From Candidatus Bathyarchaeia archaeon (GTDB lineage Archaea; Thermoproteota; Bathyarchaeia; Bathyarchaeales; Bathycorpusculaceae), in contig JBEKGO010000012.1 of NCBI GenBank assembly GCA_050012755.1, forward strand, positions 1 to 55,076: 55,076 bases of DNA, in the 5' to 3' direction. The position numbers and the translations under genes were made by a program. The notes beneath the pieces were generated by a model that saw nothing but the letters and a program-made list of their open reading frames with translations, searched no databases and was not told where the DNA came from. This document shows positions 29,720 to 36,554 of this stretch, piece by piece (the stretch's first letter is position 1; each line of letters starts with the position of its first letter).

Positions 29720-31381
29720 TTGATCGATGCACTTCAGGCGCTGTCAGTCATCTTTATACTTGGAATAACGGTACTGTTAGCTTGGCTAATAGCACCATAC
29801 ATTACTGGAGTCTTTAGGCGTAAACCAAGCCGTTTAGACAAGATATTCAACCCAATCGAAAACTTCATCTACAAAATCACAGGGGTAAACTCAGAACAGA
29901 CGATGGGTTGGAAGCAGTACTTCCTTTCAGGTTTACTACTAAATGTTGTTATGATGGTTATTGGCTTTCTAATCCTTGTCTTCCAAGGCAATTTGCCGCT
30001 TAACCCCATGAGATTCGCTGGCGTCAGACCGGACCTCGCTTTTAATACTGTGGCATCATTTGTGACAAACACAAACCTTCAGCACTATAGTGGCGAAATC
30101 ACTTTGTCGTATCTTAGCCAGATCGGTGTTATACAGTGGCTTCAATTCACATCCGCAACGACAGGATTATGCATGGGCATAGCATTTATTCGAGGATTAA
30201 TAGTTGGCTCCAAAGATATGGGCAACTTCTACACTGACTTCACCAGATCCCTCACAAGAATTTTTCTACCACTCTGCATCATAGCATCAATCATATTTCT
30301 CGCATTAGGTGTGCCTCAAACCCTCAATGGTTATACAACAGTAAAAACCATAGAGGGAGCATCACAATCAATTCTAGTCGGGCCAGTAGCTTCTCTTGAT
30401 TCCATTATGCAAATAGGTACCAACGGCGGCGGATTTTACGGTGCAAACGCTGCCTACCCGTTCATGAATCCTTCGCCGATAAGCAACATTCTCATGATCT
30501 CTCTCATGCTTCTGTTGCCCACTGCGTTAATTTTTGTGTTTGGACAAATGATTGGCAAAAAAAGAGAATCAAGACCACTTCTATGGGGCGCTTACATCCT
30601 TTTTGGACTTAATCTGGTCATTGCGTTTATTCCTACCCTTCCTTTGATAGCTCCATTCATAGAAGTCAGATTCGGCGGTTTCATGAGTAGTTTCTACACT
30701 GTTACAACAACGGTCGCCACAACAGGCTCGGTGAACTCGGGTTTAATTGGAAACCATCCTCTTACAATACTTTCTGGATTCTTAGGAATGTTCATTCAAT
30801 CAATCCCAGGCGGAAAAGGTGTGGGTATGATGTACATGATTATGTACATTATAATAACAGTCTTCATAGTCGGACTGATGTCGGGAAGAACCCCTGAATA
30901 CTTGGGCATGAAAATAACAGGGCGCGACGTTAAACTCGTGATGGTTGCTTTCCTCATTCATCCGCTCATCATACTTATTCCTACAGTAGTAGCGTACGCG
31001 TCAGGGGCAGTCTCGGCAATAGGGGTGGGTGGAAACTCTGTTGGTTACACGCAGATTCTCTGGGAATTTACCAGTTCTGCCGCGAACAACGGTTCTGACT
31101 TCTTAGGTGCCTCAGGAAACACGCCGTTCTTCAACATAGCAACCGCAATCGTCATTCTCATTGGACGTTATGCTCCAATTGCAATATTATTGGCGCTTTC
31201 AGGTTCAATGATTGGCAGAAAACGCGGCGGAACAACCTCGGGTCTAAAAACTGACACGCTAATATTCACGCTAGTATTGGTTGCTAGCATCATTATACTG
31301 GTAGTGTTGACTTTCTTCCCATTCTTGGCAATTGGACCATTAGCTTCATTCTTTAAAGGAGCGGTGAACGGTCTTGGCTAA
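29720..31381 (+). CDS. kdpA: K+-transporting ATPase subunit A
   Basis: Filter motifs TNTNLQHYSGE, GTNGGGF, TTGSVN and NNGS; GLMSGRTPEYLG. Confidence 0.96.
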   Translation: MIDALQALSVIFILGITVLLAWLIAPYITGVFRRKPSRLDKIFNPIENFIYKITGVNSEQTMGWKQYFLSGLLLNVVMMVIGFLILVFQGNLPLNPMRFAGVRPDLAFNTVASFVTNTNLQHYSGEITLSYLSQIGVIQWLQFTSATTGLCMGIAFIRGLIVGSKDMGNFYTDFTRSLTRIFLPLCIIASIIFLALGVPQTLNGYTTVKTIEGASQSILVGPVASLDSIMQIGTNGGGFYGANAAYPFMNPSPISNILMISLMLLLPTALIFVFGQMIGKKRESRPLLWGAYILFGLNLVIAFIPTLPLIAPFIEVRFGGFMSSFYTVTTTVATTGSVNSGLIGNHPLTILSGFLGMFIQSIPGGKGVGMMYMIMYIIITVFIVGLMSGRTPEYLGMKITGRDVKLVMVAFLIHPLIILIPTVVAYASGAVSAIGVGGNSVGYTQILWEFTSSAANNGSDFLGASGNTPFFNIATAIVILIGRYAPIAILLALSGSMIGRKRGGTTSGLKTDTLIFTLVLVASIIILVVLTFFPFLAIGPLASFFKGAVNGLG

Positions 31382-33551
31382 TCAACTTATAGACTCAAAG
31401 AAAAGCTCAGAATCAGCACCCACTGGACTACGTACAGTCTTCTCTAGGAAAGTGCTAGTTGACTCAGTAGTTCGATTAAATCCCAAATCTTTACTTAAAA
31501 ACCCAGTAATGCTGATCGTTGAACTTACCTTCTTCATTGTGGCAGCAATGGCTATTGTTCCACAAGCATTTGTGCCAGTATCCAGCCCCAGTTTACAAGT
31601 TTTCTATATTGAGGTCGCCGCCATCCTCCTCATTACAGTCTGGTTTAGCACACTCTCGGATGCGCTTGCTGAGCAACAAGCAAAAAGCACTGCCGGAAGC
31701 CTCAGGAAAATGGAAACAGAAGTAGCAAGCAAGAAAATCATCACTGAAGGCTGGACGAGAAAGATAGTGGCTGTGAAATCAACTGAACTTAGAAAAGATG
31801 ACCTTGTCCAAATTGAAGCAGGCGACATTGTTCCCTTAGACGCTGACGTAATCGAAGGAATAGCAATGGTAGACGAGTCCCTTGTCACAGGTGAATCAGC
31901 CCCAGTCAGAAAGGCGCCTGGAGACTCCCTAATCGGGGGCTCACGTCTTGCCAGCGATACCTTGACAGCGAAGATTACAACTAACCCCGGAGAAACCTTC
32001 ATTGACCAAATGATCAAGATGGTAGAGTCCTCCAAGCGGCCAAAGACTCCCAACGAAGTAGCGATAACCATGGTCTTGATTGGCTTAACAGCCATATTCA
32101 CTATAATTATACTTGCATTGCTAGGCACATCAGTTACACTTGGCCTTGGAGCAGATTTGTCAGTGTTGATCGCGTTATACGTTTGCCTGCTTCCCACAAC
32201 AATAGGCGCATTGCTACCTGCCATCGGCCTCTCAGGCATAACCCGACTATACAAAAACAAAATCGTAGCAAAATCAGGCAGAGCCATAGAAACCGCAGGA
32301 GACACAGACGTGGTACTCTTAGATAAGACTGGCACAATTACAGTGGGTAATCGGCAAGCCATAGAGTTCATCTCTTTTGAAGGCTACACTGAAGAAGACG
32401 TCGGTGAAGCTGCATTCCTTTCTTCTTGGCATGATGATACACCTGAAGGACGAAGCATACTGAGACTTGCCTACGAAAAAGGGTTCGTACCAAAAGAACT
32501 AAACTCCCTTGCAACTTCAGAAGTTTTTCCATTCTCTGCTAGTACTCGAACAAGCGGAGTCAAGGTAACAACTCAATCAAATTTAGCGCTTCCAAAAGGA
32601 GGCAAAGCCATTTTCCAAAGGCAGAGAATGAGGAGAAAAACCTCCTCACTATCTAGTGAGTCGATGGCTTCAACTTTTCAACCTCAGATCAATGTTCTCA
32701 AAGGTGCTCCAGAGTCAATAAAAAAATTGTCATCTTCAGCTCCCAAAAACTATGACCTAATAGTCGAAGGCATTTCTTCAGTAGGAGAAACCCCGATAGC
32801 AATTTCAGTAAATGACAAAGCCATCGGAATTATTAGACTGAAAGATGTCCTCAAAGAAGGCATAAAGGAAAAGATACAAGCGCTTAAGGTCATGGGAATC
32901 CGTCCCGTCATGATTACAGGGGACCAACCGCTTACTGCAAAAAGCATAGCTTCGGAAGTTGGAATTGAAGAATTTGTTGCACAAGCTAAACCTGAAGACA
33001 AATACAAGATAGCTAAGAAAGAGCAGGCTGAAAACAGAATCGTAGCCATGATCGGCGACGGAACAAACGACGCACCAGCACTTTCTGCTGCTGATGTTGG
33101 GTTAGCCATGAACTCTGGCACTGAAGCCGCAAAAGAAGCCGCCAACATGGTGGATTTGGAATCAAACCCGGCGAAAATAATTGACGTTGTTATGTTGGGC
33201 AAGCAACTGCTGATGACTAGAGGTGCAGTCACAGCCTTCAGCATCGCCAACGATGTATCAAAATACTTCGCAATTATGCCAGTAATCTTTTCAGTGGCTA
33301 TTCCACAACTAAGCAGTCTGAACATCTTACACTTGGGGCTTAAGAGCGCCGTGTTGTCTGCTCTGATCTTTAACGCGATAATTATTCCGCTTCTGATTCC
33401 CCTCGCTATGCGCGGCATCGCCTTCAAACCCACAAGCACAATGACGCTCTTCCTCAAGAACACTTTAATTTACGGAGTGGGCGGAATTATCGTGCCCTTT
33501 ATCGGAATCAAACTAATTGACATGTTACTTGTCTATCTATTCCATATTTAG
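31374..33551 (+). CDS. kdpB: K+-transporting P-type ATPase subunit B
   Basis: TGES, CLLPTTIG, DKTGT, MITGD, GDGTNDAPAL, FSIANDVSKYF. Confidence 0.98.
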   Translation: MANQLIDSKKSSESAPTGLRTVFSRKVLVDSVVRLNPKSLLKNPVMLIVELTFFIVAAMAIVPQAFVPVSSPSLQVFYIEVAAILLITVWFSTLSDALAEQQAKSTAGSLRKMETEVASKKIITEGWTRKIVAVKSTELRKDDLVQIEAGDIVPLDADVIEGIAMVDESLVTGESAPVRKAPGDSLIGGSRLASDTLTAKITTNPGETFIDQMIKMVESSKRPKTPNEVAITMVLIGLTAIFTIIILALLGTSVTLGLGADLSVLIALYVCLLPTTIGALLPAIGLSGITRLYKNKIVAKSGRAIETAGDTDVVLLDKTGTITVGNRQAIEFISFEGYTEEDVGEAAFLSSWHDDTPEGRSILRLAYEKGFVPKELNSLATSEVFPFSASTRTSGVKVTTQSNLALPKGGKAIFQRQRMRRKTSSLSSESMASTFQPQINVLKGAPESIKKLSSSAPKNYDLIVEGISSVGETPIAISVNDKAIGIIRLKDVLKEGIKEKIQALKVMGIRPVMITGDQPLTAKSIASEVGIEEFVAQAKPEDKYKIAKKEQAENRIVAMIGDGTNDAPALSAADVGLAMNSGTEAAKEAANMVDLESNPAKIIDVVMLGKQLLMTRGAVTAFSIANDVSKYFAIMPVIFSVAIPQLSSLNILHLGLKSAVLSALIFNAIIIPLLIPLAMRGIAFKPTSTMTLFLKNTLIYGVGGIIVPFIGIKLIDMLLVYLFHI

Positions 33552-33563
33552 GAAGGAAAATGT

Positions 33564-34028
33564 ATGACTGAACAAAAAGAGAAATGGAACTTCAAACCGA
33601 TTATAGGTTTAGCACTGGTTTCGCTGTTAATCTGCGGGCTATTTTACCCGTTTTTAGTCACAGGGATTGGCCAAGTTTTCTTTCCTAACCAAGCTAACGG
33701 CGACGTTGTCCAACTTAATGGGCAAGCGGTCGGATCAAGCCTGATAGCTCAAAGTTTTACCCTGCCTATTTTTTTCCGTACGAGAAACGAGACAGCTTCG
33801 CCTTCTGCATCAGGCGTTGACCCAGACATTACCCTGCAAGACGCTTATTCCCAGATTCCAGGAGTAAGTAACGCAACAGGTATTCCTTCGACTGCGTTAA
33901 CTGTCATCATTAACCAGAATGAAGAGGGAACATTTTGGATTTTTGGGAGCCCATACATAAATGTCTTGAGAGTCAATTTGCTGCTCATTAAGGATTATCC
34001 GTCTATATACAGTAATTTTACCGGCTGA
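33564..34028 (+). CDS. kdpC: K+-transporting ATPase subunit C (short form)
   Basis: YPFLVTGIGQVFFPNQANG, GSSLIAQSF, SASGVDPDI, INVLRVNL. Confidence 0.92.
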   Translation: MTEQKEKWNFKPIIGLALVSLLICGLFYPFLVTGIGQVFFPNQANGDVVQLNGQAVGSSLIAQSFTLPIFFRTRNETASPSASGVDPDITLQDAYSQIPGVSNATGIPSTALTVIINQNEEGTFWIFGSPYINVLRVNLLLIKDYPSIYSNFTG

Positions 34029-34196
34029 TGTTAGCGTTTGGTGGATAAAGTTTGGTTCACTGAGTGCTGGAGTAATAGCTCTAGCTATTTTTACAAATTT
34101 TCAATGTTAAACCCCATTTCTGTACGTTTGTAGGGCTAATGATGAAACTACTGTGCGCATTGCACAAAAAGTATAAATACGCGAAACTCATGTTCA

Positions 34197-34514
34197 ATGA
34201 GGAAAGAGACCCATATGCCAAAACTACTAGCATTTGTAGACATATTTGTAGAATCTCAAGAAATGGACGATGTTTTAGCCTCGCTCACCAAATTAGACCA
34301 TCTTGAAGAACTCTACGAAGTTACCGGAGAATTCGACATTGTAACTATGGTATCAGCCGCTGACATAGAAGAGTTTCGGGATATCCTAAAAAACAAAATC
34401 ATGAAAATAAAAGGTGTAAAAAGCACAGTTAGCTCTATCGTGCTTAAAGCTCATAAAGGGCCAAAATGTACTGATCAGGAAAACTTGTCTGCTTCGGCTC
34501 CTTCATCCGTTTGA
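34197..34514 (+). CDS. Stand-alone Lrp/AsnC ligand-binding domain protein, paralog of 29380-29667
   Basis: LYEVTGEFDIV and EEFRDIL...IMKIKGVKST; no HTH; own TATAAATA at 34172. Confidence 0.9.
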   Translation: MRKETHMPKLLAFVDIFVESQEMDDVLASLTKLDHLEELYEVTGEFDIVTMVSAADIEEFRDILKNKIMKIKGVKSTVSSIVLKAHKGPKCTDQENLSASAPSSV

Positions 34515-34744
34515 AAAGTGGCTTTTTTTGACTAGAAATATCTTATTGCAGCGACTGATTATCCAATTGTTGTGTTATTACTCTTAACAGTCTCTAAAAA
34601 ATCATTCAAGGAATCACCTTTTTCATTATTTAGACTTCTGCAAAAAAATCGTCAAGAGTCCCCATCTCAGCAATACCCCTTAAACTGAATTAATAAAGCA
34701 CAGAAAAGGAAACAAGATTTTGCTGAACAAAAAATCAGAAGGAG

Positions 34745-35062
34745 TGCAGGTTGAGTCTAAGCCTTAAGATGTTCGCGGCCCATTGAGGCTATGTCTTTGT
34801 CGTTGCACAGTCTTTCACCGTTTTGACCGTGCTGCTCATGGCCTCACTGCAACATATGGTGATGTTCAGCCCATCGAAGCATTGTCTTTGTCGCGTATCA
34901 ATTTTTCGCTGTTTCAATTGACACACTCATTGCCTCAATGCACTGCGTCCAATGTTCAGCCCATCGAAACAAAGTCTTTGTCGCGTATCAATTTTTCGCT
35001 GTTTCAATTGATACGCTCTTTGTCTCAATACATCGCTATTAAAGCGTGCTCCTCAACCTGCA
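34745..35062 (-). ncRNA. Putative structured non-coding RNA (~318 nt) with three repeated hairpin domains
   Basis: 11-bp terminal inverted repeat; three ~90-nt units with compensatory stem changes and conserved loops; TATA-like element about 25 nt upstream and U-tract downstream on the minus strand. Confidence 0.7.
34768..35036. repeat. Three tandem ~90-bp units (two near-identical, one diverged)
   Basis: GTCTTTGTCGCGTATCAATTTTTCGCTGTTTCAATTGA occurs twice, 90 nt apart. All three units share ATGTTC..GCCCAT and GTCTTTGTCG. Confidence 0.9.
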
Positions 35063-35384
35063 ACACTATAACTGTGCTTGCTAAAATATAACAAATTGTA
35101 TACAAAAAATCGGCAATTAAACTCGTTTTTTGTCTTGTAAAGACCTTCTTTCTAACCAACTGGGTTTGTCCCAGCTAAATTAGTTCCAAGAGTTTTTTAT
35201 GGTGGAATTAGCTTTTGACATAAACTTGTCAATTTGACATGAATGACGCAATTTATCTGAAAACAGGGTTAACCGACGGCAACATACGGTCGGTGGTTAA
35301 TTGAATTATCATGAAGTGTAAATTGCCATACCTTTTTTTATAACTCTGCTGGTGGGCTCATCTTATAGCCACATCAAACTTTGA

Positions 35385-35795
35385 TTATTCAAATCTTAAG
35401 ACCACTGCAACCTTCTTTTTGGCTAAATCATCAACTATTCGGATCCAGGCGTCAGGAATTTCCCTTTCCTCTTCTTCTGTGAGTTTCCTGACAAGCAAAT
35501 TATTCTGAACGAAAAAAGAATGCTTGCATGACTCACAATTCAAATATGGAAAAACGCCATCTAATGGTTTGCTTATAGCTTGTTTGGCACCACAATACGG
35601 GCATACCCGAATCATATGTTTTTGAGTGTGATTTGCCGAATCTGATTTAACCTCAATATTTCTTTCAAGCTCATCCCAAGATGAGTACATTCGGTGTAAG
35701 GGGGAATTTCCTGCAGACCATAATTCCTTAAAAATGCTCAAGGCTTCTTTTCGCTCATGCTCTTTACTATTTGGACAATCGTTTTGATCGCCCAC
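35385..35795 (-). CDS. Hypothetical zinc-ribbon protein
   Basis: CPYC...CESC pair. Confidence 0.7.
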   Translation of the reverse strand: MGDQNDCPNSKEHERKEALSIFKELWSAGNSPLHRMYSSWDELERNIEVKSDSANHTQKHMIRVCPYCGAKQAISKPLDGVFPYLNCESCKHSFFVQNNLLVRKLTEEEEREIPDAWIRIVDDLAKKKVAVVLRFE

Positions 35796-36143: not shown

Positions 36144-36554
36144 TCAAGTTAGCGTTGGGATATTCTTTGCACCGCGAACCAACGCATTCGCGCAAAGTCT
36201 CGTGAAATCATAAAGGTCGTCAATAGGAATTCCAATGCCCGCTGCCGCTCTACCATATAACGCTCTAACTTCATCTTCAAACTCCGGGCTGTAACGCTGC
36301 AGAACAAAGTAGATTCTTAAGTTACTGATTGGTTCCATCATTATCGCCCAATCAGTTGCCGAATCAATAGTAAGGTCAACAAGTTTTCCACCAACTAATG
36401 ATGCTATCTTTTCAGCCATCAATTTGTTCACAAGTCTCAAATCTTTCGTGCGAATGGCCATCTCTCTTTTATGCATACTATCGATCGCAAAACAGCTTTC
36501 ACCATACCCCATTTCTTTCAGTGAAAGGACTTGTGATAACTCTATTTTTTCCAT
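36144..36554 (-). CDS. Hypothetical protein (136 aa)
   Basis: ORF with GAGG RBS; no confident family. Confidence 0.7.
   Translation of the reverse strand: MEKIELSQVLSLKEMGYGESCFAIDSMHKREMAIRTKDLRLVNKLMAEKIASLVGGKLVDLTIDSATDWAIMMEPISNLRIYFVLQRYSPEFEDEVRALYGRAAAGIGIPIDDLYDFTRLCANALVRGAKNIPTLT

Follow-up and report, generated by a model that had tools for sequence, protein, structure and literature searches.

Introduction

In the portions of the literature available, the archaeal splicing endonuclease is reported to act on tRNA introns, rRNA precursors, a few mRNAs and the products of permuted genes for tRNA or signal recognition particle (SRP) RNA (PMC12558985, PMC7714728, PMC4731332). For archaeal tRNA introns and pre-rRNAs, excision at a bulge-helix-bulge motif and subsequent ligation into circles have been established (PMC12558985, PMC7714728). 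As described for tRNA, the motif consists of a helix of 4 base pairs (bp) and two bulges of 3 nucleotides (nt), with the first two anticodon bases lying in the central helix (PMC4090602). Here, we describe a locus of Candidatus Bathyarchaeia archaeon (assembly GCA_050012755.1, contig JBEKGO010000012.1) at positions 34745-35062, minus strand, of the window, i.e., the whole stretch of 55,076 nt that was analyzed. The locus is probably a stand-alone Bathyarchaeia gene for a structured non-coding RNA that is excised at such a motif and circularised.

The biogenesis route is known. A stand-alone gene whose sole product is a conserved, modular, pseudoknotted circle, absent from Rfam 15 and from the literature that we found, appears to be new. 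Literature searches, whose scope excluded supplementary tables of circular RNAs that might list similar ones, retrieved no description of this Bathyarchaeia RNA; what was found on circular RNA in Bathyarchaeia concerns rRNA and tRNA. An initial annotation of the locus, made from the letters alone, had described a structured RNA with three covarying domains. This observation was confirmed as described, and its interpretation as a whole was partly supported.

Results

A processing motif at the ends of the RNA

On the minus strand, 35062-34745 starts with UGCAGGUUGAG and ends with CUCAACCUGCA, which form the 11-bp stem noted in the initial annotation; GCUUUAA faces UUAAGGC inside it, also as noted. 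This stem (P1), previously taken to close the final RNA, is actually the outer helix of a processing motif and is excluded from the mature RNA. The elements of the motif and its product are as follows:

35052-35062, minus strand: 5' strand of P1, pairing with 34745-34755; outer helix of the bulge-helix-bulge motif, covarying in relatives, with no RNA contig over it
35048-35051, minus strand: 5' strand GAGC of the central 4-bp helix, pairing with GCUU at 34759-34762
35045-35047, minus strand: three-base 5' bulge ACG, cut between 35046 and 35045
35039-35045, minus strand: 5' strand GCUUUAA of helix P2, pairing with 34761-34767
34761-34767, minus strand: 3' strand UUAAGGC of P2
34759-34762, minus strand: 3' strand GCUU of the central helix, overlapping the last two pairs of P2
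34756-34758, minus strand: three-base 3' bulge AGA, cut between 34757 and 34756
34745-34755, minus strand: 3' strand of P1, removed from the mature RNA
34757-35045, minus strand: mature RNA of 289 nt, probably circular, judged by depth limits and a back-joint in four RNA runs

The 11-bp outer helix, the GAGC/GCUU helix and the bulges ACG and AGA agree with a canonical bulge-helix-bulge motif, the inner helix being the weak point. The motif geometry was present in 77 of 79 evaluable unique RNAs of the family described below, and the consensus bulges A-N-G and AGA/AGG in 71 of the 79. In 15 single-unit relatives, the central helix was 100% paired, with one-sided changes only, and 6 of the 11 pairs of P2 changed on both sides. 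Folding of the circular form predicted P2, with two extra pairs after ligation and a 4-nt loop UUAG across the junction as its cap. The circles predicted from the motif measured 106–108 nt for one unit, 195–207 nt for two units (61 of 64 RNAs) and 289 nt for three units.

A search of public sequencing runs returned 24 with part of 34650-35150, ten of which were recorded as RNA (0.31–0.42 of the sampled words). For four RNA runs, one from each of four studies (groundwater, unspecified metagenome, sediment and groundwater), the contigs were placed on 34550-35250. In all four runs, depth was zero at 34550-34741 and 35054-35250 and confined to 34757-35045; the silent flanks argue against DNA contamination. 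The contigs start at 34757 and stop at 35045, that is, inside the two bulges, the 3' end of the RNA being the G of ..AAGGCUUAG and the 5' end the G of GCUUUAA. In each bulge, the end lies between the second and the third base, where the archaeal splicing endonuclease would be expected to cut, as deduced from the geometry of tRNA introns at 37/38.

Further, a back-joint from 35045 to 34757 was found in all four RNA runs (2, 2, 2 and 1 contigs; seven in total). Loose ends and inserted letters from relatives gave a like junction, with ..GGCUYAG joined to GCUUUA. The segment between the bulges is thus present alone and with its two ends fused to each other, which makes a circle of 289 nt the most likely mature product. 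Extra back-joints, from 34942 to 34757 and from 34942 to 34770, with 11–30 inserted letters, were observed in run X16; these letters can be read as the junction of a related RNA with fewer units, which suggests that several family members are expressed in that sample.

Alternatively, the RNA could be linear and small, the motif merely trimming its ends and the joints being artefacts of cDNA synthesis or assembly. That the joint is seen in assembled contigs of RNA runs speaks for this explanation and weighs against a circle. However, the joint recurs in four runs of four studies and in variant sequences of relatives, no 31-mer repeat connects the two ends, and segments excised at the motif in archaea are described as being ligated into circles (PMC12558985, PMC7714728). 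A linear product is therefore very unlikely, and we retain the circle.

The genome encodes two EndA paralogues (PF01974, 95 and 73 bits) and one RtcB (PF01139, 592 bits). A generic motif scan of this genome gave 44 geometric candidates including the RNA locus; the others, at least for the most part, probably arise by chance. Two that resemble the bulge-helix-bulge motif and have AGA as the 3' bulge were noted at G000:C16:51145-51513 and G000:C3:61700-61911.

Three units, each with a pseudoknot

The minus-strand fold had a minimum free energy of −119.2 kcal/mol (z = −9.4), equalled by 0 of 100 shuffles, and the plus-strand fold gave z = −4.4. Three units of ~90 nt were found, as previously described, at roughly 35036-34947, 34946-34857 and 34855-34766; Tandem Repeats Finder reported a period of 90 with 1.9 copies and 91% matches (units 1 and 2). 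The outer stem recurs in every unit, with one mismatch each in units 2 and 3, and each unit holds the A(G)/(C)GACAAAGA internal loop, the inner stem, the 12-nt loop RAAACRGYGAAA and the AUGGGC..GAACAU tail that had been listed. The modularity and the covarying stems seen at first thus stand; what had been overlooked is a pseudoknot of loop to tail in each unit. The unit features, scored where indicated with the broader model R2 described below, are:

34947-35036, minus strand: unit 1 (R2, 85.7 bits)
35030-35018/34974-34962, minus strand: outer stem (P3) of unit 1
35016-35006/34993-34983, minus strand: inner stem (P4) of unit 1
35005-34994, minus strand: 12-nt loop of unit 1
34982-34975, minus strand: internal-loop strand GACAAAGA of unit 1
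35001-34998/34960-34957, minus strand: pseudoknot of unit 1, CAGC with GCUG
34857-34946, minus strand: unit 2 (R2, 87.4 bits), 91% identical to unit 1
34911-34908/34870-34867, minus strand: pseudoknot of unit 2, CAGC with GCUG
34766-34855, minus strand: unit 3, 'type B' (R2, 87.0 bits)
34832-34825/34812-34805, minus strand: inner stem of unit 3, 8 bp
34820-34817/34779-34776, minus strand: pseudoknot of unit 3, CGGU with GCCG, its letters covarying relative to units 1 and 2

Unit 2 is a recent duplicate of unit 1, the duplication being common to the relative L079.

Pairing was tested in an alignment of 73 non-redundant units from relatives (A4), which covered the 13-bp outer stem, the 11-bp inner stem and the 4-bp pseudoknot (28 pairs). 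Overall, 88.9% of cells paired, compared with 30–42% when partners were slid, both-side changes occurred at 26 of the 28 pairs, and the observed values were reached by 0 of 500 shuffles. This is in line with the earlier claim that the stems vary yet remain paired. Among 2044 paired cells, G-U/U-G combinations (189) exceeded A-C/C-A combinations (54), which supports the minus strand as the RNA strand and agrees with the wobble bias first reported. A second alignment (A5) of 15 full-length single-unit RNAs from several orders, modelled with P1, the central 4-bp helix, P2, P3, P4 and the pseudoknot, had 95.5% of cells paired and double changes at 35 of 55 pairs, with slid controls at 26–42%.

These substitutions also bear on a 102-codon open reading frame (ORF) on the plus strand (34783-35091), which exists and might be the true feature of the region. 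The ORF has no Pfam match, the substitutions keep base pairs and favour G-U on the minus strand, and the predicted two-unit circles occur in every length between 195 and 207 nt, a spread that no conserved reading frame would permit. The protein-coding reading is effectively refuted.

In A4, the pseudoknot was 99% paired, with one pair found as GC 37, AU 29 and GU 5 times and another as CG 51, UA 12 and UG 8 times. The loop CNGY pairs with RNCG, which begins one base past the outer stem; CAGC/GCUG, CGGU/ACCG, CGGC/GCCG and rarer forms occur, and all four positions were pairable in 180 of 181 units. The tetramers of the two units differed in 79 of 81 two-unit RNAs. A variant RNA at L118:1360-1850 (genome G095) has a first unit with a longer pseudoknot, CCCAG with CUGGG, and a second unit that lacks the GCGAYAAAGAC internal loop and keeps the loop and tail tetramers.

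The internal loop is conserved and strongly asymmetric (A / GACAAAGA), with 1–2 nt on the 5' side and 8–9 nt on the 3' side, the latter being nearly invariant across units and species. With the tail at the base of a 24-bp hairpin, the loop reaches it in cis only if the internal loop acts as a hinge; we infer that this hinge lays the inner stem back along the outer stem, and the near-constant stem lengths fit such a fold-back. A kink-turn reading of the internal loop was rejected, as it needs a register shift of one base and covariation backs the G-C pair that closes the outer stem.

The covariation proves pairing and is silent on cis versus trans. The loop tetramer could thus pair with the tail tetramer of another molecule, giving RNA-only multimers of circles, for which ornate bacterial RNAs offer a reported precedent (10.1101/2024.12.08.627333). 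On the other hand, the 13- and 11-bp stems and the conserved hinge suit fold-back in cis, and different tetramers within each RNA are expected if mispairing between units is avoided, although G-U wobble allows one cross-combination. Assembly in trans is accordingly quite unlikely, and pairing within the unit is preferred.

Compact pseudoknotted modules with invariant unpaired bases would also suit a catalytic RNA, every unit being a whole or partial ribozyme. Nevertheless, the RNA contigs pass through all units with no internal ends, the ends that exist coincide with the motif of a protein enzyme, and no ribozyme family matched, which makes catalysis highly improbable.

Two further analyses were less informative: RNAalifold recovered the structure only in part from a MAFFT alignment of two-unit RNAs, and an all-against-all scan of column covariation in the two-unit alignment gave noisy output.

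Distribution of the family

The locus gave one full-length match in its own 2.4-Mb genome and is single-copy there; the remaining 11 matches to the RNA were 14–21 nt each, with E values of at least 0.67. A miniature inverted-repeat transposable element or other dispersed repeat, which the initial annotation had raised as an alternative, was rejected on this ground.

By BLAST, relatives were detected in 30 of 61 related genomes, including its own; within the genus, 25 of the 36 genomes other than its own had one. Species-representative genomes, scanned with a pattern, yielded 65 loci, 62 of them titled Bathyarchaeota or Bathyarchaeia and the other three 'uncultured archaeon', 'Thermoproteota archaeon' and 'Methanocella sp.'. 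The contig of the 'Methanocella sp.' metagenome-assembled genome (L081) encodes LeuRS and pyrophosphatase that are 84–90% identical, and syntenic, to those of the Bathyarchaeia loci L077 and L097, and is therefore probably mis-binned.

A unit covariance model identified 58 + 123 units in these loci, giving 96 RNAs (81 unique). By unit number, 81 of the 96 had two units, 13 had one and 2 had three; a few of the RNAs counted as 'one-unit' in fact carry a second, degenerate unit. The three-unit RNAs were those of the window and of L079 only, which are 89% identical overall and share the same arrangement. The three-unit form first described is thus an expansion particular to this lineage; two units are the usual number in the family, and other orders have one.

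The broader model R2 matched 25 of 151 sampled genomes of the class, in 13 of 79 genera and several families of different orders, mostly as one-unit RNAs. In the phylum sample, R2 matched in Bathyarchaeia only, with 0 matches in ~131 Thermoproteota genomes of other classes, and the pattern scan gave 0 matches in viral contigs. In a complete genome of another family (G052:C1), five units were found at four loci (~275.5 kb, 730.0 kb, 740.2 kb and 1994 kb), so copy number per genome can exceed one.

Patchy distribution and variable unit number are what a selfish or neutral intron-like element, or a processing by-product with no function of its own, might show. However, several orders share strongly conserved sequence and structure, with compensatory changes; the RNA appears to have its own promoter, and there are no exons with any product. 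Genomes carry one to few loci, with none found in viral contigs. Such an element is highly unlikely.

Transcription signals and neighbouring genes

Three signals flank the RNA gene:

35096-35105, minus strand: perfect palindrome TTGTATACAA, immediately 5' of the TATA box
35086-35091, minus strand: TATA-box-like TTATAT, its centre ~26 nt 5' of the first base of the processing stem (35062, U1)
34729-34734, minus strand: run of six T, 11 nt past P1, a likely archaeal terminator

The TTATAT and the downstream U-tract had both been named in the initial annotation. In 72 upstream regions of relatives, anchored on the processing motif, an A/T-rich TTTAATAT-like TATA block lies ~26 nt before P1. These positions support an archaeal-type promoter belonging to the RNA itself and, together with its presence in RNA libraries without the flanks, agree with the independent transcription proposed earlier. 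The putative terminator is weakly conserved, as TTTT occurs within ~40 nt after P1 in only 32 of 73 relatives. The palindrome is tentatively regarded as a candidate regulator site; at its position, relatives carry inverted repeats of the TTGT..ACAA type, TTGTC-N3-GACAA or TTGTnAC-N6-GTnACAA, whose spacing varies between clades.

On the plus strand, 29720-34514 holds a kdpA-kdpB-kdpC operon followed by the gene of a 105-aa protein, which is convergent with the RNA gene and in which only an AsnC/Lrp ligand-binding domain was matched. No same-strand gene lies downstream of the RNA within the window, the AsnC-type gene converging on it, and the downstream gene is convergent in most relatives too. 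Across 96 loci, no neighbour family occurred in more than 15, the largest cluster being CBS-domain proteins (15 of 96); other neighbours were an unknown 183-aa protein, DNA ligase, LeuRS with pyrophosphatase, MFS, MscL and Kdp. A cis riboswitch or leader was rejected on these two counts, i.e., the convergent downstream gene and the lack of a neighbour family beyond 15 of the 96 loci.

The same data bear on a tandem aptamer acting in trans, in which each unit would form a pocket from internal loop and pseudoknot and the circle would sense or sequester a small molecule rather than a protein. Nearly invariant unpaired bases gather around the pseudoknot, as in many aptamers, and two distinct unit types stand side by side in 79 of 81 two-unit RNAs. 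Two maintained unit types recall tandem or pseudo-symmetric aptamers. However, neither an expression platform nor a downstream gene is present, the next gene is usually convergent, the neighbours share no common pathway, and no riboswitch family matched; we regard a tandem aptamer as unlikely.

Upstream of the RNA, two 136-aa ORFs lie on the minus strand (35385-35795 and 36144-36554). They are not paralogous to each other, and a zinc ribbon (DUF2310, E 0.002) was matched weakly in the first; neither is kept beside the RNA in relatives. In family f11 (L106, L107, L112, L114, L117 and L118), a convergent gene always follows the RNA gene; its C-terminus, read from the translated end only, resembles ATP-dependent DNA ligase. 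In one relative (L023:2800-3099), an RNase P RNA gene lies ~1.1 kb downstream of the RNA on the opposite strand.

Comparison with known RNA classes

At gathering thresholds, Rfam 15 gave nothing at the RNA region of the window; at E up to 10, three chance-level matches only were obtained in 34500-35300, and nothing matched the RNA in 12 relatives' loci. The RNA therefore falls outside known families, as had been claimed.

H/ACA guide RNAs have one to three hairpins, each followed by an ACA, two variable guide strands in the internal loop, a kink-turn or kink-loop, and the ACA ~14–16 nt from the pocket. Here, the 5' side of the internal loop has 1–2 nt and its 3' side is nearly invariant, the ACA lies ~20 nt from the loop and is partly paired, and no Rfam match was obtained; this class was rejected. 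A C/D guide RNA was also rejected, with no C/D box family match in Rfam.

Type III antitoxin RNAs consist of tandem pseudoknotted repeats, short and nearly identical, with a toxin gene behind them in the same orientation. The units of the present RNA, of 77–90 nt and two diverged types, do not fit this class, nor does the lack of a same-strand downstream gene. Finally, a permuted SRP RNA or RNase P RNA was rejected, as canonical SRP RNA (111 bits) and RNase P RNA (186 bits) are encoded on other contigs and no local match was found.

Discussion

Taken together, the results can be reconciled in the following model. Strongly supported is a primary transcript of ~320–330 nt that starts ~26 nt downstream of the TATA box and whose ends pair as P1 (11 bp), followed by the 4-bp helix flanked by two 3-nt bulges. 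The tRNA splicing endonuclease EndA would cut at both bulges, and RtcB would then seal the cut ends into the 289-nt circle. The circle consists of P2, a hairpin with the ligation junction as its cap, and of three arms. Each arm has a 13-bp stem, the asymmetric internal loop, an 11-bp stem and the 12-nt loop, of which four bases pair with the four immediately 3' of the arm. The internal-loop hinge may fold the inner stem back and let the pseudoknot form in cis, and circularity would be expected to confer resistance to exonucleases.

Several points weigh against this model. The bulge-helix-bulge motif competes with the last two pairs of P2 (alternative registers), and the inner helix in the cleavage-competent register is short, with 3 bp here and ~1 bp in some relatives. 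The RNA evidence consists of assembled contigs, which carry neither strand information nor quantitative depth, and head-to-tail joints can in principle arise from template switching by reverse transcriptase. The short unit-closing helices were no better than shuffled partners (49 of 181 vs. a mean of 38.5); a multi-way junction formed through them, plausible by eye in the window and the genus, was rejected for this reason. Further, units 2 and 3 are wrongly nested when the circle is folded thermodynamically, the family is patchy, and the neighbours are unrelated housekeeping and transport genes that point to no partner.

With regard to function, the RNA has few variable single-stranded stretches, which argues against a base-pairing regulator, and the invariant bases of loop, hinge and pseudoknot speak for a defined tertiary fold with some partner that recognises it. 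The repeated module and the circular form point to a scaffold or sponge that is both stable and multivalent. We tentatively suggest, at somewhat less than even odds, that the circle may persist for long as such a scaffold or sponge and display one to three modules to a putative protein or other partner. In a bolder version, about which we are slightly more doubtful, Bathyarchaeia might possess 'intron-only' genes whose sole product is an abundant circle of one to three modules, which would either serve a cellular protein as sponge or scaffold or assemble by itself into an RNA particle. If this were true, it would be the first circular RNA in archaea to act in its own right, as opposed to an intermediate or a circularised member of a known family.

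The gene would add a new class of endonuclease substrate, namely a conserved, independently transcribed gene that yields only a structured circle. Its natural design of motif plus cargo is relevant to engineered circular-RNA expression systems that are reported to rely on this motif (10.64898/2026.10.12.758436). Metatranscriptome assemblies from several habitats contain the RNA, which is thus probably abundant and stable. The module, with its 13-bp stem, hinge, 11-bp stem and 4-bp loop-to-base pseudoknot, would be a compact new fold suited to structural work. More broadly, uncultivated soil and sediment archaea hold RNA families that lie outside every current library.

Two kinds of known RNA resemble the Bathyarchaeia RNA in architecture. 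In fold-back pseudoknots of the SAM-I type, a sharp bend in a hairpin lets the loop pair with a strand at its base, and sponge RNAs (CsrB/RsmZ and eukaryotic circular sponges) repeat a binding module, circularity serving to stabilise. In contrast to these aptamers and sponges, the Bathyarchaeia RNA gives no sequence or model match to them, has no cis-regulated gene, and contains no standard kink-turn in the register supported by covariation.

Other systems are related by being circular. The omega RNAs of IS200/IS605 elements also occur in archaea as structured, pseudoknotted circles (PMC12558985); as portrayed there, they lack the motif and lie beside TnpB genes, whereas the Bathyarchaeia RNA has a conserved motif and no adjacent transposon gene. 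Circular intermediates of pre-16S and pre-23S rRNA and circular 23S rRNA, reported also for Bathyarchaeia, likewise rely on a long processing stem with the motif and on ligation (PMC12918454). Compared to these, the present RNA measures 106–289 nt, has a promoter position of its own and is patchily distributed.

The permuted SRP RNA of Thermoproteus is described as another product of a gene for neither tRNA nor rRNA that is circularised at the motif and made functional thereby (PMC4731332). It is a rearranged member of a universal family, whereas the Bathyarchaeia circle matches no family, even locally. Likewise excised at the motif and circularised, with a functional excised piece, is the tRNA-Trp intron with its C/D box RNA in Haloferax, Pyrococcus and Halobacterium, as reported (PMC12558985, PMC4090602). 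In contrast to circular tRNA introns, the Bathyarchaeia RNA is not accompanied by a tRNA, its 'exons' being just the two strands of the processing stem, and it has no C/D box match, its cargo instead being a modular pseudoknotted fold.

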